Shown: positions 52,962-63,716, counted from the first letter of the stretch. The stretch is 64,000 nt of DNA from an uncultured Planctomycetaceae bacterium (GCA_963815195.1 CAWFGE010000017.1:288001-352000), one strand, 5' to 3'. The notes: generated from the letters alone by a model not told the origin. Numbers and translations are program-made.

Positions 52962-53123
52962 TCAATCCGCGTCTTCGGTGTCGCGGGTGTCGATCTCCAG
53001 CGGGCCTTTGAGATCCTCCATCTCCACCGGCGGCAGGAGCAGCACCTTGGTGATGCAGTACCCGAACAGCGCCAGCACCGCGCTCACCGACGTCAACATC
53101 ACCAGCCAGGCCCAGAACGTCAT
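52962..53123 (-). CDS. Small single-TM protein coupled to NSS transporter (MetS-like small subunit)
   Basis: [28 protein letters not shown]...; ATGA overlap with transporter stop. Confidence 0.7.
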
Positions 53124-54832
53124 CGCGTGCCCTCCGCGGTCTTCGGGTTGGACGGGGAGTCTCCATAGGTCAGCCGGCCGTCTTTCTCCCAACGCCGGCC
53201 TGCGATATGCACCATCAACAACAAGAACCCCAGCACCAATAGGATGAAACCGATCGTGCCTTGGGCCACCGGCTTTTCAGAAATGGATTTCACATAAGCC
53301 GGCACGTTGTTGATGGCGAAACCGATGAAGATCGTCAGCAGATACACGGGCACGACGTATTTCAGCATGTACTGCACAAACCGCGGAATGCGAATGTGTG
53401 CCCCGCGGTGGGCTTCTTCGTCGCCCCTCTCGATGCCCAGCACCCAGCCGTAGAGAATCGCCTGGATCATTGCCAGGACAAAGATCAACACGCTGCCCAC
53501 CCAGAAATCCATGGTGTCGAGTGCCGTGAGATTCTTGGAAAAGTAGAGAATGAACCCGCTGCCGAGGGCGGTGATCAATCCCAAAAGAGCGGCGGAGGCG
53601 TGGCGCTTCAACCCAAACCCTTCTTCCAAAAACGCAATGACGGGCTGCAGCATGGACACGCTGCTGGTGATCGCCGCGATGAACAGCATAAAGAACCAGA
53701 GGAAACCGAAGACCCGTCCCCCCGGCATCTGGGCAAACACATTGGGCAAGGCGTTGAACCCCAGCCCGAATGTACTTTGTTCCCCCGCGGCAACTCCCAG
53801 GAAAATAAACGCGGCGGGAATCGTGATCAGCCCGCCCAGGCAGACTTCGATGAACTCGTTGACGCTGCTGGAAGTCAAACCGCTGAGGACAACATCGTCC
53901 CGCTCGCTCAAATAGCTCGCGTAATTGATGATGATTCCAAACCCCACCGAAAGACTGAAAAAGATCTGCCCCGATGCGGCCAGCCAGGTTTGCGGGTCGA
54001 GCAGCTTCTCGGGCTCGGGATTCCACATGAAGTTCAAACCGGCGAGCACCGATTGGTCGGGCTTGTCGGGATTCGGAGCCCCCAATGTCAAGACGCGCAC
54101 CAATACGATGAGGGCGAGCACGATCATTACGGGCATCGCGATCCGGCAGAAGGATTCGATGCCCTTGGTCACGCCGCGGTAGATCAAGAAGAAATTGAAC
54201 AGGAACACGCCCACGAGCACCCACAGCCATCGGCCGCCGTGCCCGCCCAGCGCGAAACCGTTCTGGTTGTTGCCGACGAAGTTATCGAAAAATGTGCCGA
54301 ACCCCGTGGCCGCGGCGTCGGCGTCGGACAGGGGCGTCTTCGCCTGCGCTTGAGCTTGGTCGATCAAGGTGTCGATTTCGCCGCCGCCGCCGATCATCAA
54401 ATCGCCCGACAGGTAATTGAAGGCATACCCCAGGCACCAGGCTTCGATCAGGACGTAATACATATAGATCATCAGCGGCATGAGGAGCGCGACGGCCCCG
54501 AGGTACTTGGCATACGGGTGCCGCCAGATTGTGGAGTAAATCCCCGGGGCGGAATTAAACCCCTTGGTGCCCCCGTAGCGGCCCATCGTCCATTCCGCCC
54601 AGCACAAGGGGATGCCCAGCACCAGCAGGGAGACGAAGTAGGGCAGCATGAAGGCCCCGCCGCCGTGTTGGGCGGCTTGGCCCGGGAACCTCAGAAAATT
54701 CCCCAGGCCGACCGCGGAGCCGGCGACGGCGAGAATCACGCCGATCCGGGATCCCCATTGTTCGCCCGAACGTGCCGCGGGCGGGTTCGATTCGCGAGCC
54801 AAGTCGATTCCTCCTCCGATTTCGCCTGCCAT
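53120..54832 (-). CDS. Sodium-dependent transporter, NSS/SNF (LeuT-like) family
   Basis: EQWGSRIG...[39 protein letters not shown]. Confidence 0.95.
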
Positions 54833-55034
54833 TTTTGCCAGCCCGAACCGCAAGCGAGGGAAATTCGAATTCCTCCCTTGCGGTTTGGGCTGGTCTGAAC
54901 TGGAGCCAAGGGAATGGGCGGAAATACCCCATCAGCGAGCGCCGGGACGGAACGAATATACCAGCCAACACTTTAAGGCGAAACCGCGGCGCGGGAATTC
55001 TCTCCGAAGAACCCCGTTGCAAACTTTTTCCGGC

Positions 55035-55060
55035 TTTTTCACAATTTCGGTTGTCAAAAA
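55035..55060. promoter_or_regulatory. Palindromic candidate operator upstream of SufR-like gene
   Basis: tttttcacaa-tttcgg-ttgtcaaaaa: 10-bp arms, one mismatch, 6-bp spacer. Confidence 0.55.
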
Positions 55061-55145: not shown

Positions 55146-55775
55146 ATGAAACCCACACTCGACCCTCAGGATCGCGATTTTCTCGACCGGCTGAACCGGA
55201 TCGGAAGTGGAACAGTCCAAGAGATTTGCGACGAATTGGGGGTGACGGCCACGGCGGTTCGGCAACGGCTGCTCCGGCTACAAAACCTGAACTTCGTCGG
55301 CAGAAAAGCGGTCCGCCGCGGTCGTGGTCGGCCGTTCCACGCGTATTCGGTCACCGAGACCGGGCAGCGGGAGCTCGGCGACAATTATTCCGACCTCGCG
55401 ATGATTCTCTGGCGGGAACTTCGGCAAATTGAAGACCCCCGTGTGCGGGAACTGGTTTTCGAGCGGATTCGCGAAGCCCTGGTCTCAAAATATGGACATC
55501 TCGTCCAGGCCGACACCTTGGACGAGCGGTTTCGGCAACTGGGCAAGGTGCTGTCCGACCGGGGTTTCCATGTGGAAGTGGACAACACGGGCCAATTGCC
55601 TATCCTCCGGGAGAACAATTGCCCGTACCTGGAGCTGGCCCATTCGGACCCCGCGATTTGCGAACTGGAGAAAGAAGTCTTCCGCGAAGTCCTCGGCTCG
55701 GAAGTGGAACTCACGCAGTGCTGCCTGGACGGCCACTCCTGCTGCGAGTTTCAGCCCGCGGCGGCGGAACGTTAA
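55146..55775 (+). CDS. sufR: SufR-like winged-HTH transcriptional regulator
   Basis: ELGVTATAVRQRL, RGRGRP...YSVTETG, C-terminal ENNCPY...ICELE...CCLDGHSCCEF; heads the suf cluster. Confidence 0.75.
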   Translation: MKPTLDPQDRDFLDRLNRIGSGTVQEICDELGVTATAVRQRLLRLQNLNFVGRKAVRRGRGRPFHAYSVTETGQRELGDNYSDLAMILWRELRQIEDPRVRELVFERIREALVSKYGHLVQADTLDERFRQLGKVLSDRGFHVEVDNTGQLPILRENNCPYLELAHSDPAICELEKEVFREVLGSEVELTQCCLDGHSCCEFQPAAAER

Positions 55776-55958
55776 AGGCGAGCAGACCAACCTTCGGTCG
55801 GTGCCCGCATAAGCCCCATGATCCGAAACAACAAATTCTAACACTCGAACGCGATAGACCAACACCGTGCGTTGCACCCAGATTGAATCCTGCTAAATTG
55901 GCGTGACATCTGCATTTGGGCAGTGTCTTTTGTCACTATTTTCACCGGAACCACATCG

Positions 55959-56510
55959 ATGACCTGGATCGAAGGACGATTTGAAGAAAACGTCATCACC
56001 ACCACCCTCGAACAGGGGATGAACTGGGCCAAGCAGTCCAGCATTTGGCCCATGACGTTTGGGTTGGCGTGTTGTGCGATTGAAATGATGGCCACCGGCG
56101 CGAGCCGGTACGATTTGGACCGCTTCGGCGCGGGCGCCTTTCGGGCGACGCCCCGGCAGGCGGATTTGATGATCGTCGCCGGCACGGTCACGTTCAAAAT
56201 GGCCAGCCGGGTCCGCCGGCTCTGGGAGCAAATGCCCGACCCGAAATACGTGATCGCGATGGGGGCCTGCACCGTGGGCGGCGGGCCGTACTTCAAACAT
56301 GGCTACCACGTCGTCAAAGGCGTGGATTTGGTGGTCCCCGTGGATGTGTACGTCCCCGGCTGCCCGCCGCGACCGGAAGCCCTCTTGGAAGGCATCATGC
56401 GGATTCAGGACAAGATCAAAGCCCACAAAATCACCAAAGGCGAAGAGCACCTGCCCGTCCCGCACCACAGCGGCTACGCCCAAATCCCCGAAGTGGCGCT
56501 GGATGTTTAA
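55959..56510 (+). CDS. nuoB: NADH-quinone oxidoreductase subunit B homolog, solitary
   Basis: [49 protein letters not shown]. Confidence 0.93.
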
Positions 56511-56535
56511 ATAGAGCATTCGCGCCACAATCCCT

Positions 56536-56587
56536 CCCCAGCCGACGACTTGTCGTCGGTGTTCGACCGCAAGCGGTCGGCTTGGGG
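56536..56587. repeat. REP-like hairpin doublet, copy 1 (nuoB-sufC)
   Basis: ccgacgacttgtcgtcgg ... cgaccgcaagcggtcg. Confidence 0.85.
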
Positions 56588-56626
56588 AATCTGTCTCTCG
56601 ATCGACAACGAATAACGCGGAAGATT

Positions 56627-57445
56627 ATGTCCAAAAGCACCCTCACAGTTGAAGAACTCCACGTCGCCGTCGCCGGCAAGCCGATTTTGAAGGGCGTCAA
56701 CCTCCAAATCCGCCAAGGCGAAGTGCATGCCCTCATGGGACCCAACGGCTCCGGCAAAAGCACCTTGGCTTACGCCCTCGTTGGCCATCCGCGGTACGAG
56801 ATCACCGCCGGCAAAGTCACCATCGACGACACCGACGTTCTCGAACTCGATCCCAACGAACGCGCCCGGCTGGGCATGTTTTTGGCGTTTCAATATCCGG
56901 TGACGATCCCCGGCGTCAAAGTGGCCGACTTTTTAAGGCACGCCGTCTCCAATGTGAGAAACCCCGAACGCAAAGAAGGCGAGAACCTCATCGCCATGCG
57001 GGAGTTTCGCAAAGAACTCCGGGAACGCATGGACGAACTCGGCATGCCTTTGGAATTTGCCCGGCGGTACTTGAACGAAGGCTTCTCCGGCGGCGAGAAG
57101 AAGCGGATGGAGATTTTGCAGATGGCGATGCTCAAGCCGCGGTTTGCGTTCCTGGATGAGACCGACAGCGGCCTGGACACCGACGCGGTCAATGTCGTCA
57201 GCGAAGGCGTGCAGCGGCTCGCCGGCCCGAACGACATGGGCGTGTTGATCATCACCCACCACGATCGGCTGCTTCAATACAACGTGCCGCAGTTCACGCA
57301 TGTGATGCTCGCCGGCCGGATTGTGGAGACCGGCGATGCGGAACTCGCCCACGAACTGCACGGCAAAGGCTACGCCGGCGTAAGAGAACGCCACCCCGAT
57401 GCCGCCGCCGAGCAACAGGAAGCAGAAGCCGTTACCACACCGTAA
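56627..57445 (+). CDS. sufC: Fe-S assembly ATPase SufC
   Basis: MGPNGSGKSTL, FLAFQYP, NEGFSGGEKKR, LDETDSGLD, ITHH. Confidence 0.97.
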   Translation: MSKSTLTVEELHVAVAGKPILKGVNLQIRQGEVHALMGPNGSGKSTLAYALVGHPRYEITAGKVTIDDTDVLELDPNERARLGMFLAFQYPVTIPGVKVADFLRHAVSNVRNPERKEGENLIAMREFRKELRERMDELGMPLEFARRYLNEGFSGGEKKRMEILQMAMLKPRFAFLDETDSGLDTDAVNVVSEGVQRLAGPNDMGVLIITHHDRLLQYNVPQFTHVMLAGRIVETGDAELAHELHGKGYAGVRERHPDAAAEQQEAEAVTTP

Positions 57446-57451
57446 CCTCTT

Positions 57452-57500
57452 CCCAAGCCGACGACTTGTCGTCGGACCGACCGCAAGCGGTCGGCTTGGG
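57452..57500. repeat. REP-like hairpin doublet, copy 2 (sufC-sufB)
   Basis: cccaagccgacgacttgtcgtcggaccgaccgcaagcggtcggcttggg. Confidence 0.88.
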
Positions 57501-57550
57501 TTTCGTTTGAGCAAAGAGAATTATCCCCAAACCTTGGGAGAACTTAAACC

Positions 57551-58956
57551 GTGTCCACAGTTGAAAAAGATGTTGCGATTGGCGAATACCAGTATGGTTT
57601 CCACGATCCCATCGACAAGTATATTTTCCGCGGCCAAAAGGGGCTGAACCGCGATGTGGTCGCCGCGATCTCCGCGATCAAGAATGAGCCGGACTGGATG
57701 CGGCAATTCCGTCTGGACTCGCTGGAAACCTTTTTCCAAAAGCCGATGCCCACCTGGGGCGGCGACATGAGCCATCTGGATTTCCAAGACATCTACTACT
57801 ATGTCCGGGCGTCCGACAAGCAGGAAAAGTCTTGGGACGAGGTGCCCGACGACATCCGCAAAACCTACGACCGCCTGGGCATTCCCGAAGCCGAGAAAAA
57901 ATACCTAGCCGGCGTCAAGGCCCAATACGAATCCGAAGTGGTTTACGGCAGCCTGCAGGAAGATCTTTCCAAGCAGGGCGTAATCTTTACCGACACCGAC
58001 TCCGCCCTCCGCGAGCACGAAGACCTGTTCCGCGAATACTTCGGCACGATCATCCCGCCGTCGGACAACAAGTTCGCAGCGCTCAACTCGGCCGTGTGGT
58101 CGGGCGGATCGTTCATTTACATCCCGCCGGGCGTGGAGATCGAGTTCCCGCTGCAAGCCTACTTCCGCATCAACTCGGAGAACATGGGCCAGTTCGAGCG
58201 GACCTTGATCATCGTCGATGAAGGCGCGAAAGTGCACTACGTCGAAGGCTGTACCGCCCCGACTTATAGCTCCGAAAGCCTGCACTCGGCGGTGGTGGAG
58301 ATCATCGTCAAGAAAAATGCCCGCTGCCGCTATACGACCATCCAAAACTGGTCCTCGAACGTGTATAACCTCGTTACCAAGCGGGCGATGGCTTACGGCG
58401 ATTCGCTGATGGAATGGGTGGACGGGAACCTGGGTTCCCGGCTCACGATGAAGTACCCGGCCATCTATTTGATGGAACCGGGCGCCCGCGGCGAGACGTT
58501 GTCCATCGCGTTTGCGGGCAAAGGCCAGCATCAGGATGCCGGGGCCAAGATGGTCCACTGCGCCCGAACACCTCGAGCCGGATTGTCTCGAAGAGCATCT
58601 CCAAAGACGGCGGCCGGTCGAGCTATCGCGGGCTGGTCAAAATCAACCACGATGCGAAGCACTCGAAATCCAACGTCGTCTGCGATGCGTTGATTCTGGA
58701 TTCCCACAGCCGCTCGGACACCTATCCTTATATCGAAGTCGATGAAAACGATGTGGCCATCGAGCACGAAGCCAGCGTCTCCAAGATCGCGGAAGAGCAA
58801 TTGTTCTACCTGATGAGCCGGGGCCTGTCGGAAGCGGAGGCCTCGTCGATGATCGTCACCGGCTTTATCGAGCCGTTGGTCAAAGAACTCCCGATGGAAT
58901 ATGCCGTCGAAATGAACCGCCTGATCGAGCTGCAAATGGAAGGCTCGGTCGGCTAG
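57551..58956 (+). CDS. sufB: Fe-S assembly protein SufB; apparent frameshift near 58565
   Basis: [31 protein letters not shown]; second frame [35 protein letters not shown]. Confidence 0.97.
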
Positions 58957-58974
58957 GCGAATTGAGATCAACAA

Positions 58975-59042
58975 CCCAAGCCGACGACTTGTCGTCGCGC
59001 AAACTCAATTTGCGTGAACCGACGACAAGTCGTCGGCTTGGG
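58975..59042. repeat. REP-like hairpin doublet, copy 3 (sufB-sufD)
   Basis: cccaagccgacgacttgtcgtcg ... ccgacgacaagtcgtcggcttggg. Confidence 0.88.
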
Positions 59043-59068
59043 GTTCAAATTCGAATGCAAAACTCAAA

Positions 59069-60462
59069 ATGAATACAACCACGATGGAAACCGCTGTCAC
59101 GCTTCCCGCCACCTTTGACGAACAGGCTTTCGAGAGATTTCTCGCAGGCCGGGATGAGCCGGGGTGGGTCACGGATGCGCGCCGCAAGGCATTTCTCGTC
59201 TTTCAAGAGAAATCCGCCGCCCCACTCGATCCCGAAGAGTGGAAGCGGGTGGATTTGCGGACATTTCGACCCGCAAACTTCCACCTCGAATCCGCATCCT
59301 CGTCCGCGACTTCCTTCAAGACCTTGATGCAACACCGGGGCGAGTTCGCGGGGCATGTCACGCATGTGGACGGCCGGTGTTCGCAGTCGGATTTGGCGGA
59401 GGACCTCAAAGCGAAGGGTGTGCTATTCGGCAATCTGGCCGATCTGGTGCACGAACACCGCGAGATCATCGAACCGCATCTGCAGAAGCGGGCGGTGGCG
59501 ATGGAGACGGACCGCTTTTCCGCCTGGCACGCCGCGTTCTGGACCGGGGGCACGCTGCTCTTTGTGCCGCGGAACGTGGAGATCGTCGAACCCCTCTACA
59601 GTTTGATTGCCCTCTCGCAGGCCGGGCAAACGGATCTCAGCCATACGCTGGTGATTCTGGAAGATGGGGCCTCGGCCACGCTATTGGAAGAAACCGCGTC
59701 CGCTGATGAAACGAGTCCGGGACTGCACTTGGGAGCGGTGGAACTGCTCGTCGGCCGGGAAGCCCGCTTGCGGTATGTGCAGCTTCAAAACTGGAACGAA
59801 AAGACCTATCACATCGCCCATCAAGCCGGGCGGGTGGAGTCCAGCGGTTTTCTGCAATGGACCGTGGGCGGCCTGGGGGCGAGGCTGGCTCATATTCATC
59901 AGGATGTGAGCCTGGACGGCCGGGGCGCGGAAGCCGAGGTCAATGGCGTGACCTTCGCCACGGGAAGACAACTCCTCTCCTACTACACCAAGCAGGCCCA
60001 CAACGCCCCCAACACGCGGAGCGATCTTCTTTATAAGGAAGTGCTTCGCGACCGCTCGCGAGTGATCTGGCGGGGCATGATCCGCGTGGAACCCGAAGCC
60101 CAGCAGACCGACGGCTACCAAAGAAGTGCAGCCTTGCTGTTGAGTCCCGATGCCCGTTGCGATTCGGTCCCGGGCCTGGAAATCGAAGCCGACGATGTCC
60201 GCTGCACGCACGCGGCGACGGCGGGCCGGGTCGATGAGGAAGAAATCTTCTACTGCATGTGCCGGGGCATGACGGAATATGAAGCCATGCACATCATCGT
60301 CGAGGGCTTCTTCCACGAAATCTACGACCGCATCCCCATCGAAACACCCCACAAACCCGCCGGGCGAACGGAGAGGATGAGGTCTTCAACGAGACACACG
60401 CCGGCATCGTGCGGGCCACCTTGAGCCATGCGGTCGAGACGAAGCTGGGCATCGGCAACTGA
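59069..60462 (+). CDS. sufD: Fe-S assembly protein SufD; 62-nt out-of-frame segment near 3' end
   Basis: EEWKRVD, SDLLYK, QQTDGYQ, PGLEIEADDVRCTHAAT; probable native tail IVRATLSHAVETKLGIGN at 60406-60462. Confidence 0.92.
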
Positions 60463-60608
60463 AGTGTGATCTTCGCTAGCGATTTAATTGGTATCCATGT
60501 GAGGATGGAGGTTAGAGGTTGGAGATTGGAAAAGGCAAAAGACATGCGACCTCCAACCTCTATCTTCCATCCTCATTCCATTAGCAGTAGAAGCGGAAGA
60601 TTCTAAAG

Positions 60609-60920
60609 ATGTCGGACTGGGAACGAATCGCCGGGGTGGAGGAACTCGCCCCCGGCGGGCGGAAATCGGTGGTGGTGGATGAACTGCCCGCGCTCCTGTT
60701 GCGGATCGGCGACGAGTACTTCTGCATCGAAGACACCTGCACCCACGATGGGCAGGCGATGACCAACGGGCCGGTCGAGGATCACGAAATCACCTGCCCC
60801 CGGCACGGCGCGCGGTTCGACATTCGCACCGGCAAAGCGTTGTGCATGCCCGCCACCGAACCGATCGAGACCTTTGAATTGGACATCCGCGACGACGGCA
60901 TCTATGCCCGCCCGTCTTGA
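60609..60920 (+). CDS. Rieske [2Fe-2S] ferredoxin
   Basis: CTHD...CPRHGARFDIRTG. Confidence 0.95.
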   Translation: MSDWERIAGVEELAPGGRKSVVVDELPALLLRIGDEYFCIEDTCTHDGQAMTNGPVEDHEITCPRHGARFDIRTGKALCMPATEPIETFELDIRDDGIYARPS

Positions 60921-61026
60921 GCGGATACAATCGAAATCGATTGGAATCAGTACGCAAATATTGGCAGAGAGAATCATGGGGCTGACGCCCCACGCTCGCC
61001 GAGTGCAGTTTTGGGAGTAACTTGAC

Positions 61027-61326
61027 ATGGCTGATGAATCCGCATTGCTCGAAGCCCTCAAACAGGTGGTGGACCCGGAACTGATGGTCAACGTCGTCGA
61101 TCTGGGCCTGGTGTATGACGTCACGCAGGAAGATGGGACCGTCACAGTGAACATGACGCTCACCAGCCCCGCCTGCCCCGTGGGACCGCAAATCGTGCAG
61201 CAAGCCAAGATGGCGCTGGAGCAACTCGAAGACGTGAAGGAAGCCAAGATCAACCTCGTGATGTCGCCGCCGTGGAGCCCCGACCGCATGACCGACGACG
61301 CCCGCGACCACTTGGGCATCTTCTGA
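61027..61326 (+). CDS. sufT: DUF59 metal-sulfur cluster assembly factor (SufT-like)
   Basis: VVDPELMVNVVDLGLVY, MTLTSPACP, PPWSPDRM. Confidence 0.88.
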   Translation: MADESALLEALKQVVDPELMVNVVDLGLVYDVTQEDGTVTVNMTLTSPACPVGPQIVQQAKMALEQLEDVKEAKINLVMSPPWSPDRMTDDARDHLGIF

Positions 61327-61337
61327 ATCGACTTTCC

Positions 61338-61426
61338 CATTAGCCGCAGGGCGCTCGCCCCGGTTTTCATTAGCCGCAGGGCGCTCGCCCCGGTTTTCAT
61401 TAGCCGCAGGGCGCTCGCCCCGGTTT
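61338..61426. repeat. Tandem 30-bp REP-like repeat x3
   Basis: cattagccgcagggcgctcgccccggtttt head-to-tail, no spacers. Confidence 0.92.
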
Positions 61427-61597: not shown

Positions 61598-63716
61598 ATG
61601 CTCCACAAAACCCGGTTGGCGAGACCGGCGGCCTTGGCGCTGCTCGTTGCCTTCAGCGTATTGACTTCCGCGCAATCTGCCCGGTCCCAGGAATCCAAAG
61701 CCCGCCTGAAGGGTTTTACCCCTCTGTTCAACGGGAAGGATCTAACCGGCTGGAAGGGACTCGTCGGCAATCCGAAAACGCGGGCGGCGATGCCCGCCGA
61801 CGAACTCGCGGCGGCTCAGAAAAAAGCCGACGAGGAAATGCGTGCCCATTGGTCGGTGGCGGACGGGGCCTTGGTGTTCGACGGCAAAGGCAAGAGCCTG
61901 TGCACCCTGAAAGACTACGGCGATTTCGAGATGTACGTCGATTGGAAGATCCTCAAAGCCGGGGACAGCGGCATCTATTTGCGCGGCAGCCCGCAGGTGC
62001 AGATTTGGGACACCCAGTACCCGGACTACTTTCGCCACGGGGCGGAAAACGGTTCGGGGTCGCTGTGGAACAACCAGAAGAATCCGCGGTTTCCCTCGGC
62101 CAAAGCCGACAAGCCCGTGGGCGAGTGGAACACGTTTTACATCCGCATGATCGGCGAGCGGGTGACGGTCAAGCTCAACGGCACGCTGGTGGTCGATGAC
62201 GTCGTGATGGAAAACATCTGGGACCGCAGCCTGCCGATTTATCCGCGCGGGCAGATCGAACTCCAGAACCACGGCAACACGCTGTATTTCAAAGACCTCT
62301 CCATCCGCGAAATCCCAGCAGGCGAAGCCAACGCGATGCTCGCGAAGCGGGAACGCGATCAGCATGCTTATGAAGAGGTCTTCAACGGCCGCGATTTCAC
62401 CGGCTGGAGCGGGGAGGTCGAAAATTACGAAGCCAAAGACGGGGCGATCGTGTGCAAACCCGGCAAAGGCGGCACGATTTTCACCGACAAGGAATACTCC
62501 GATTTCGTGGCGATTCTGGAATTCAAAACGCCGCCCGGCGGCAACAACGGCCTGGCGATCCGCTACCCCGGCACCGGCCGGGCCCACATCGATGGGTTCT
62601 GCGAACTGCAAATCCTCGACCCGGCTTACAAAGGACACGACAAGCTCGATCGCCGGCAATACCACGGCTCGGTTTATGGCCTGGTCGGCACAGCCCGGCT
62701 ACTTGCGGCCGGCGGGCGAATGGAATTTCCAGAAGGTCACGGTCAAAGGCTCCCGGGTGCAAGTGGAACTCAACGGCACGGTGATTCTCGACGCCGACGT
62801 CAGCCAAGTCAAAGAATCCAAAGACGGCGCGGTCCCGCCCGGCGTGAAGCGCAAAAGCGGGCATTTCGGGTTTGCGGGACACAACGACCCGGTCGCGTTT
62901 CGGAACATCGCCATCCGCGAACTCCCCGGCCCGCCCGCGAAACCGGGCCCGCGTGAGAACGCCCTTCGCCCGACGGATGGGCCGATCAAACTCTTCAACG
63001 GCAAAAACTTCGAAGGCTTTTACACCTGGATCCGCGATTCGCAGTATTCCGATCCCAAGAAAGTCTTCAAGGTGGAAGACGGCATGATCCACATCTCCGG
63101 CGACGGCTGGGGCGCGCTCATCACCAACGAGGAATACCGCGATTATCATCTCATCGTGGAGTTCCGCTGGGGCGAAAAGACCTTCGGCACAAGGGTCGAT
63201 CGGGCTCGCGATTCGGGCGTCTTGGTCCACGGTTGGGGGCCGGACGGCGGCTACGGCAATACCTGGATGGCGGCGGTCGAAGCCCAGATCATCGAAGGCG
63301 GCGTAGGCGACATTCTGGTGCTCACCGGCGAAGATCCGCTCACGGGGCAAGTCTATCCCACATCCTTGACGGCGGAGATCACCAAGGACCGCGACGGCGA
63401 AAAGGTCTGGAAGAAAGGCGGCGAACCGGTCACCTTGTCCAAGGGCCGAATTAATTGGTTCGGCCGGGATGTGGACTGGGCGGACAAGCTGGGCTTCCGC
63501 GGCCGCGATGACATCGAAAGCCCGCACGGCGAGTGGACCAAGATGGAAGTCATCGCCGACGGCGGCACGCTGACGTATAAAGTCAACGGCGTGGTGGTCA
63601 ATCAGGCGTCCCAGGTCCAGCCGGACTTCGGCAAGCTGCTGTTGCAGACCGAGCAGGCGGAGCTTTATGTCCGCCGCTACGAACTTTGGCCGCTCGGCCA
63701 GGCGCCGCAAAAGTGA
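61598..63716 (+). CDS. Exported protein with three DUF1080 (3-keto-disaccharide hydrolase-like) domains; apparent frameshift near 62690
   Basis: Three units starting LFNGKDLTGW / VFNGRDFTGW / LFNGKNFEGF, with DSG/NNG and GEWN/GEWT motifs. Confidence 0.88.

Follow-up and report, generated by a model that had tools for sequence, protein, structure and literature searches.

We analysed a 64,000-nucleotide stretch of DNA from an uncultured Planctomycetaceae bacterium (GCA_963815195.1 CAWFGE010000017.1:288001-352000; the whole stretch is called the window here), in which a solitary nuoB gene lies between a gene for a SufR-like regulator and the genes for assembling iron–sulfur (Fe-S) clusters, sufC, sufB and sufD. 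NuoB is the complex I subunit of cluster N2. The best explanation, to which we give a probability of roughly 0.6, is that the window gene codes for an ordinary N2 subunit, that it likely shares a transcript with the suf genes under the control of a SufR-type repressor, and that it is kept there since it helps to produce or renew NuoB next to the machinery for its cluster. That the gene encodes the NuoB subunit of complex I is a nearly certain element of this reading, and it is shared by two of its rivals: a chance relocation without benefit, and a complex that serves as an electron partner of Suf.

NuoB and its complex I partners

The window NuoB scores 238.6 bits against TIGR01957 (cut-off 142.7) and 245.1 bits against PRK06411 (cut-off 116), and it matches only PF01058 and NuoB models. 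The FrhG and VhuG hydrogenase small-subunit models reach at most 28 bits against it, and the known Fe-S carrier families (A-type, Nfu, Mrp/ApbC, U-type) gave no match. Its best matches in the PDB are PSST/Nqo6 (2fug_6 and 6g2j_B among them), over the full length and with E ~1e-59. ATG 55959 is preferred as the likely start because relatives begin with M-x-W-I-E-G-R-F; GTG 55923, chosen by the open reading frame (ORF) finder, is probably 12 codons too early. When the protein is aligned to PSST, the ligands of cluster N2 are C38, C39, C104 and C135, the tandem CC included, which bears out the claim of the original prediction, made from the sequence of the window, that all four cysteines are kept. 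They are invariant in all 65 suf-located NuoB sequences. From family membership and these ligands, the protein is predicted to bind the [4Fe-4S] cluster N2 and to assemble with NuoD.

The original prediction had also called for a search of the full genome (8.87 Mb in 25 contigs, 94.6% complete). This search found no nuoB other than the window gene, and single copies of nuoA, nuoC, nuoD, nuoH and nuoI, plus nuoJ-N. Contig C20 carries nuoI-DUF2203-nuoA-184-aa ORF-nuoC-nuoD without nuoB, and nuoHJKLMN are located on contig C13. Because there is a single nuoB, the slot for it between nuoA and nuoC is empty and the other ten subunits are encoded elsewhere, we regard the window gene as the eleventh gene of a complex I that lacks NuoEFG. 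NuoF (PF01512) was not found in this genome, and NuoE, NuoF and NuoG queries from the full operons of two relatives gave no match in it except one of 104 residues (28%). Its NuoD has no CxxC, i.e. the NiFe-type motif is absent, and its NuoI carries two [4Fe-4S] motifs. The genome encodes NqrA, a 2-oxoacid:ferredoxin oxidoreductase and several ferredoxins, one of them of 7Fe type (C12:518589); the electron donor of the 11-subunit complex is described as an open question (PMC11238625).

We searched 161 Planctomycetia genomes of at least 90% completeness, the source genome included, for NuoB, SufC, NuoD, NuoF, KorA and DUF2203. Orthologues were accepted at an identity of at least 70% for NuoB (93 genomes) and at least 58% for NuoD (94 genomes); paralogues reached at most 64% and 49%, respectively, among the rows listed, and the best E-value of each genome was available. 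Adjacency, meaning nuoB at most 2 kb upstream of sufC, was tabulated for the 122 genomes outside the family labelled f4. In 60 of the 161 genomes, which fall under 13 family labels, nuoB stands directly before sufC and nuoD is present, so that the adjacency seen in the window is conserved among relatives. Both orthologues occur without adjacency in 33 genomes (26 of f5, five of f14, one of f6, and G039, where sufR-nuoB stops at a contig edge). Neither was found in 28 of the 122 non-f4 genomes, and G055 has nuoD only by score; its nuoB is truncated by a contig end 1.1 kb ahead of sufC. Both orthologues are missing from the 39 f4 genomes, most of which have a long fused NuoBCD-type frame in their place. 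Overall, the presence of nuoB and of nuoD agrees in 160 of 161 genomes, the exception being G055, and nuoD is present in every one of the 60 genomes in which nuoB adjoins sufC.

In 12 fetched operons of complex-less genomes, sufR is followed directly by sufC. On a SufC tree (71 rows; L110 was left out for its partial sufC), such sufR-sufC operons occupy at least four, probably six, separate positions among the nuoB-bearing operons; as kin are not independent, this count of separate losses is the meaningful figure. Since nuoB was lost exactly when nuoD was lost, with the rest of the suf operon intact, a role of NuoB as a carrier for Suf is disfavoured. Among the 30 best nuoD loci, 27 have nuoA-nuoC-nuoD and none has nuoB. 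No NuoF-family gene (PF01512) was found in 15 genomes with a suf-located nuoB and nuoD, the source genome included (five are single-contig), and at 13 of 13 loci the paralogous nuoB of relatives (~53% identical) is part of an ordinary nuoABCD operon. The sufR-nuoB-sufC order also occurs in loci labelled Planctomycetaceae, Bythopirellula, Pirellulaceae and Thermoguttaceae, and inserts beside nuoB come and go among relatives while the position of nuoB is kept.

The families with nuoB away from suf lack this type of suf operon: sufC is present in one of 33 f5 genomes and none of two f6 genomes. In f5, which groups with Gemmataceae loci, and in f6, no sufC was found above E 1e-60 in 32 of 33 and two of two genomes; another route to Fe-S clusters must exist in these planctomycetes. 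In f14 the order is a different one, sufB-sufC-sufD-sufS (three of five seen). This second suf type (L173, L179-L182, L184), sufB-sufC-sufD with sufS and often sufE or DUF59, was observed in f14 and three scattered genomes; it gave no sufR hit and forms its own clade on the SufC tree.

Several candidates for further parts of the system were set aside. PF01058 has two matches in the source genome, the window gene and a protein on contig C10; the latter is missed by the NuoB search, and its cluster, in an ORF reading, looks like a cytoplasmic group-3 hydrogenase. An antiporter-like pair on contig C15 (L103:7807-13981) was rejected as part of complex I; it adjoins a 988-aa ORF, with which it resembles what we take to be a DabAB inorganic-carbon transporter. 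KorA (TIGR03710) was considered as a co-inherited donor and DUF2203 as an extra subunit. The former occurs in the 14 f1 genomes without the complex and was not found in six genomes with it; the latter occurs in all 14 of these f1 genomes, and 11 f1 genomes that have the complex gave no match to it. As a separate observation, the 184-aa ORF of contig C20 (L005:8080-8634) has a hydrophobic N-terminus and no NCBIfam family, lies between nuoA and nuoC where nuoB would be, and was not seen in the other 29 nuoD loci.

The suf locus and its putative control

The locus holds seven genes on the + strand in the order given by the original prediction. Its features, with the putative control sites upstream, are as follows.

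55036..55059, +, operator-like imperfect palindrome, consensus TTTT(C/G)(A/G)CA-N7-TTGTCAAAA
55051..55079, +, sigma-70-type promoter-like site, TTGTCA-17-TAAAAT
55146..55775, +, SufR-like repressor with a winged helix-turn-helix (wHTH), a GRP AT-hook at 61-63 and C159/C172/E175/C200
55959..56510, +, nuoB, above the TIGR01957 cut-off, sole copy in the genome
56627..57445, +, sufC, TIGR01978 325.9 bits (cut-off 212.8)
57551..58956, +, sufB, TIGR01980 positions 2-332 and 329-448 in two frames
59069..60462, +, sufD, TIGR01981 249.8 bits (cut-off 222)
60609..60920, +, Rieske-type [2Fe-2S] ferredoxin, PF00355
61027..61326, +, DUF59 / SufT-like protein, PF01883; TIGR02945 99.3 bits, below the cut-off of 143.4

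The first gene is called SufR-like, and not SufR (COG2345), since its product scores 65.5 bits against the cyanobacterial model TIGR02702, under the cut-off of 178.8. Its residues C159/C172/E175/C200 are spaced 13/3/28, exactly as in the cluster site C179/C192/E195/C220 of Mycobacterium tuberculosis SufR (bioRxiv 10.64898/2025.12.26.696629), and GRP together with C-x12-C-x2-E-x22-26-C occurs in 69 of 72 SufR-like homologues. The predicted structure consists of the wHTH and a C-terminal domain, with a predicted local distance difference test (pLDDT) score of 92. Sequence and fold searches of the PDB with this protein returned generic wHTH and sensor folds only, and no SufR structure.

The palindrome upstream, flanked by T and A tracts, is probably the binding site of the SufR-like protein, and its right arm is the -35 box of the promoter-like site. 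The latter, a consensus match only, was the best of the scan with 10 of 12 consensus matches, and in most relatives the palindrome is followed, with similar spacing, by a TA..AT-like box. We built a matrix from 38 distinct sites in the upstream regions of 51 relatives (at most six mismatches to the seed, window excluded). With this matrix, the window site ranks first in the whole genome at 30.1 bits, the next locus reaching 19.6, and a score of at least 16 was found before sufR in 23 of 25 held-out loci. The palindrome was found neither in the sufR-nuoB or nuoB-sufC gaps of the tested loci, nor before nuoI in 28 regions (some genomes counted twice), nor before nuoH, sufS or sufE of the source genome; SufR control of other nuo genes, sufS and sufE was rejected on this ground. 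Two further candidates were discarded: a weak 14.3-bit site before the window nuoB (55915) is unconserved in relatives, and a CAAC-N7-GTTG between sufR and nuoB, whose spacing differs by one base from the cyanobacterial one, was not seen in relatives.

No terminator-like site was found on the + strand between sufR and sufC. In single relatives, sufR and nuoB are separated by 1, 3 or 19 nt or overlap, and nuoB and sufC overlap by ATGA. These arrangements are consistent with nuoB being likely co-transcribed with sufCBD from the sufR promoter. The known holo-SufR is a repressor (PMC8593673; bioRxiv 10.64898/2025.12.26.696629), and nuoB is for this reason expected, by analogy, to be probably up when clusters are scarce or damaged. 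The original prediction had offered, as one of two readings, that the N2 subunit was placed under Fe-S-responsive control so that complex I assembly tracks cluster supply. The control itself gains support from the conserved palindrome over the -35 box and from the very short or overlapping sufR-nuoB gaps of some relatives. The direction is probably wrong, as by analogy with SufR nuoB would rise under shortage.

For the rest of the locus, whole-genome family searches placed no nuoA, nuoC or nuoD, NuoD-like large subunit, cysteine desulfurase, SufE or IscU/SufU in the window, in agreement with the absences first noted, the hydrogenase large subunit among them. The remark that the suf locus lacks sufS and sufE is right for the locus and wrong for the genome: both genes lie on contig C13, and an IscU-type gene, an A-type carrier and IscS-like genes are also encoded elsewhere. 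In the present assembly, a one-base frameshift interrupts sufB near 58565, and sufD has a frameshift at ~60345-60370 near its 3' end, where the C-terminus resembling relatives is in another frame. About 20 additional codons, unique in the genome, were observed near this end of sufD, and the downstream DUF1080 gene (61598-63716) is frameshifted too. All three frameshifts are probably assembly or sequencing indels, since other genes of the same assembly are split as well. The Rieske ferredoxin ligands C44/H46/C63/H66 are invariant in 17 sequences, and the gene is retained in genomes without complex I. The palindromes in the gaps between the genes of the locus are ordinary genome-wide repeats (34-79 BLAST hits). 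They belong to short intergenic repeats, palindromic or tandem and of several families, that resemble repetitive extragenic palindromic (REP) elements (55776-55825, 56535-56586, 57451-57500, 58975-59042 and 61338-61426), with tens to hundreds of matches genome-wide. An NSS-family sodium symporter gene (53120-54853, -) is divergent from sufR in the window, and it adjoins the operon in many relatives, whether or not nuoB is there.

Origin, parallel cases and rival explanations

Loci labelled Phycisphaerae and Gemmataceae have the order nuoI-nuoA-nuoB(-nuoC), and a suf-adjacent nuoB was found in none of 24 fetched loci of other Planctomycetota classes. On a NuoB tree of 194 rows, a step also proposed with the original prediction, the 65 suf-located rows fall in one starred clade with short branches (Shimodaira–Hasegawa-like approximate likelihood ratio test, SH-aLRT, 97), which also holds nuo-located Gemmataceae and Phycisphaerae rows. 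The simplest reading is one ancestral move of nuoB out of nuoI-A-B-C-D, with no duplication. One further locus, L031, is labelled Alcaligenaceae, yet its nuoI-DUF2203-nuoA-nuoB cluster is of planctomycete type and falls with f5 and f14; it is probably a mis-binned or mislabelled contig.

Two unrelated lineages place nuoB behind Fe-S assembly genes as well. In the lineage of G274 (L091), sufU comes directly before nuoB-nuoD(-I-C) in 19 of 29 loci, and eight longer regions of its relatives (L385-L392) read sufC-B-D-Rieske-sufS-sufU-nuoB-D-I-C, six of them direct. The five genomes of this lineage that were checked have nuoA next to nuoH at another locus, and an ordinary nuoABCD besides. In the lineage of G308 (L047:9824-13903; L396-L420), iscA and/or iscS come directly before nuoB in 24 of 26 loci, with the conserved order iscS-iscA/erpA-nuoB-korA; nuoB is usually followed by korA and twice by sufB, as in L409 and L410, where iscA and sufB flank it. 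A nuoA-nuoC-nuoD-nuoH cluster that lacks nuoB is found in G308, and its three nuoB and two nuoD genes make the pairing ambiguous. On a tree of 98 NuoB rows, the planctomycete, G274 and G308 groups lie apart, the planctomycete (95) and G274 (100) groups inside starred branches and nuo-located NuoB between them. The recurrence in two unrelated lineages favours selection over accident. We also observed that nuoB (once as nuoB-nuoI-nuoB) is followed by a Rieske-type ferredoxin in two Acidobacteriota loci (L051:8001-11253 and L081:8001-8926), the first of which has iscS-iscU-DUF2203 ~6 kb upstream.

The sequence of events that we favour would run as follows. The gene would have left an ancestral nuoI-A-B-C-D order, which is retained in the Phycisphaerae and Gemmataceae loci. 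The sufR promoter would give one transcript covering sufR, nuoB and sufCBD, which holo-SufR would repress, so that NuoB and Suf would rise together upon cluster shortage or oxidative damage. Fresh NuoB might then receive its [4Fe-4S] cluster from nearby Suf components and join NuoA, NuoC, NuoD and NuoH-N made elsewhere, which would make it a regulated, replaceable part. A ferredoxin or flavodoxin may be the electron source of the 11-subunit enzyme, with Na+-NQR handling NADH. In E. coli, SUF matures complexes I and II inefficiently (PMC8593673), which offers a possible motive and is not evidence for the planctomycete lineage.

Several points weigh against this reading. The enzyme can do without the coupling, as 32 genomes (f5, f6 and f14) encode the same complex with a nuoB that lies outside suf. 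The SufR-like protein is under the curated SufR cut-off, and the palindrome is unlike CAAC-N6-GTTG. NuoI carries two [4Fe-4S] motifs, yet nuoI has no palindrome. Median gaps are 110 nt between sufR and nuoB and 104 nt between nuoB and sufC, and up to 1.3 kb with inserts; as they are not tight, internal promoters may exist. The large tree does not settle whether the suf-located NuoB sequences are monophyletic, nuo-located G006 and Phycisphaerae rows standing among them with weak support, and Gemmataceae-type genomes scatter nuoB, nuoC and nuoD freely, which makes accidental landings plausible. The two outside lineages came from 80 loci picked by similarity and not from a blind survey, which leaves the enrichment unquantified, and in two deeper relatives of G274 sufU and nuoB are 2.4-3.3 kb apart, once with opposite-strand genes between them.

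The strongest rival, unlikely though to be taken seriously, is a frozen accident, in which a chance event brought the complex I nuoB behind the sufR promoter and the gene, its own promoter gone, became trapped there and has since been co-regulated without benefit. It draws on a nuo cluster already split (H-N apart from I-A-C-D) and further fragmented in f5 and f14, so that nuoB can stand alone, on the 32 genomes that encode the complex with nuoB outside suf, and on a palindrome that precedes no other subunit gene. Chance fits less well with a position kept in all 60 genomes that have both genes on one contig, across 13 family labels and despite changing inserts, or with two unrelated lineages that independently place nuoB behind suf or isc genes. 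A more functional alternative lets the NuoEFG-less complex serve Fe-S assembly: run backwards by the proton gradient, it would reduce the Rieske ferredoxin of the operon, or else it would take electrons from it, and the supply of NuoB upon release of SufR would be the switch. The absence of a NADH module, with no NuoF-family gene in the 15 genomes mentioned above, the Rieske ferredoxin in the same operon and the G274-lineage nuoB-D-I-C block behind a suf operon that includes a Rieske ferredoxin all suit this idea. Complex-less genomes, however, keep the suf, Rieske and DUF59 genes intact (8/8 fetched f1 loci), as does one f4 locus with sufR-sufC-B-D-Rieske-DUF59 and no complex; as the suf operon is intact where the complex is lost, Suf would be independent of it, and other ferredoxins are available in the genome. 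We therefore consider it quite improbable. Improbable, too, is its broader form, in which the complex is an arm of Fe-S biogenesis: a rise in NuoB would switch on electron exchange with the Rieske protein and feed cluster assembly or repair, and this wiring would have arisen repeatedly, hence its presence in at least three unrelated lineages.

The other reading of the original prediction, that NuoB has been repurposed or moonlights as a stand-alone [4Fe-4S] carrier, store, sensor or electron donor for Suf, went unsupported, and we judge it very improbable. It could appeal to the position of the gene inside the suf operon and to a C-terminal LPxPHHSG tail that is conserved in the suf-located copies (P168 100%, H169 95%, H170 96%, G172 100%) and different in most nuo-located ones. 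The tail is, however, present as PHHSG in the nuo-located NuoB of G006, and mean identity among the suf-located proteins is as high as among nuo-located orthologues (0.80 vs 0.77). Moreover, the gene is the sole nuoB for a complete 11-subunit gene set, it is missing from all 30 best nuoD loci, and it is co-lost with nuoD and kept beside sufC without it in no genome. A mis-assembly at repeat junctions that joined an unrelated nuoB to suf, which the original prediction had named as a risk, could be suspected from the multi-copy repeats in each gap and from the indel errors of the assembly; the same order in 60 of 161 genomes of the class, with several single-contig genomes among them, and the vacant place for nuoB in the nuo cluster make it extremely unlikely. 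We thus retain the ordinary N2 subunit under likely SufR-type control as the preferred explanation.

Comparison with known systems

All parts of this system are known proteins; the wiring is new. The new elements are the likely control of one complex I subunit by SufR and the recurrent association between nuoB and genes of Fe-S assembly. The literature searched, which left most subscription papers outside, gave no description of nuoB within a suf operon. Table S6 of the Thermogutta terrifontis study, whose expression table identifies genes by locus tag alone, lists a full nuoA-N operon only (PMC5673643), a two-hybrid contact between FdxA and NuoB is reported for Helicobacter pylori (PMC8144621), and PMC6995999 only names the enzyme. 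If our explanation is true, an Fe-S sensor doses one core subunit of complex I apart from its ten partners, and NuoB with its N2 cluster would be the limiting or damage-prone piece of the complex. The way in which N2 is loaded, a possible exchange of NuoB upon oxidative damage and the electron source of the 11-subunit enzyme would then be open to tests in cultured planctomycetes. Planctomycetota are also added to the range of SufR-type regulators, here with a defined candidate operator, and the relocation accounts for nuoB-less nuo clusters in annotation. That unrelated lineages repeatedly pair nuoB with suf or isc genes suggests that the maturation of complex I is under a general constraint, and that cells gain from making NuoB together with the machinery that builds its cluster.

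Compared with NuoB/Nqo6/PSST (NDUFS7), the likeness lies in the family score, the four cysteines and the presence of the cognate NuoD, NuoC, NuoI, NuoA and NuoH-N. The window gene differs in having moved from nuoA-B-C-D into suf, and in its lineage-specific PHHSG tail. Elsewhere, 86% of the genomes that have the 14-subunit enzyme show nuoA-N colocalized; that survey scored genomes short of any of the 14 subunits as without complex I, and its main text makes no mention of planctomycetes (PMC4453560). Complex I-like enzymes of 11 subunits without NuoEFG are known (PMC11238625). Those of Desulfitobacterium hafniense (nuoABCDHIJKLMN) and the cyanobacterial NDH-1 share with the planctomycete set the same 11 subunits and the absence of a detectable N-module. 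The planctomycete genes, in contrast, are spread over three loci and not in one operon, one subunit standing behind an Fe-S regulator, and many relatives have a second, full nuoA-N operon.

SufR is given only for Cyanobacteria and some Actinobacteria in the part of PMC8593673 available to us. The SufR-repressed suf operons of Mycobacterium, Streptomyces and cyanobacteria resemble the planctomycete operon in having the regulator first, a GRP AT-hook, three cysteines and a glutamate at the M. tuberculosis spacing, an A/T-flanked palindrome over the promoter and an associated DUF59 gene. They differ from it in that a respiratory-chain client lies between the planctomycete sufR and sufC, sufS and sufE are elsewhere, and the core of the palindrome is another one. 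Links between complex I and cluster supply or repair are also made by helper proteins, namely the frataxin-like subunit Nqo15 of Thermus and the mitochondrial Ind1/NUBPL. While these are helpers added to the complex, the planctomycete link is genetic: a core subunit has been moved into the assembly operon.

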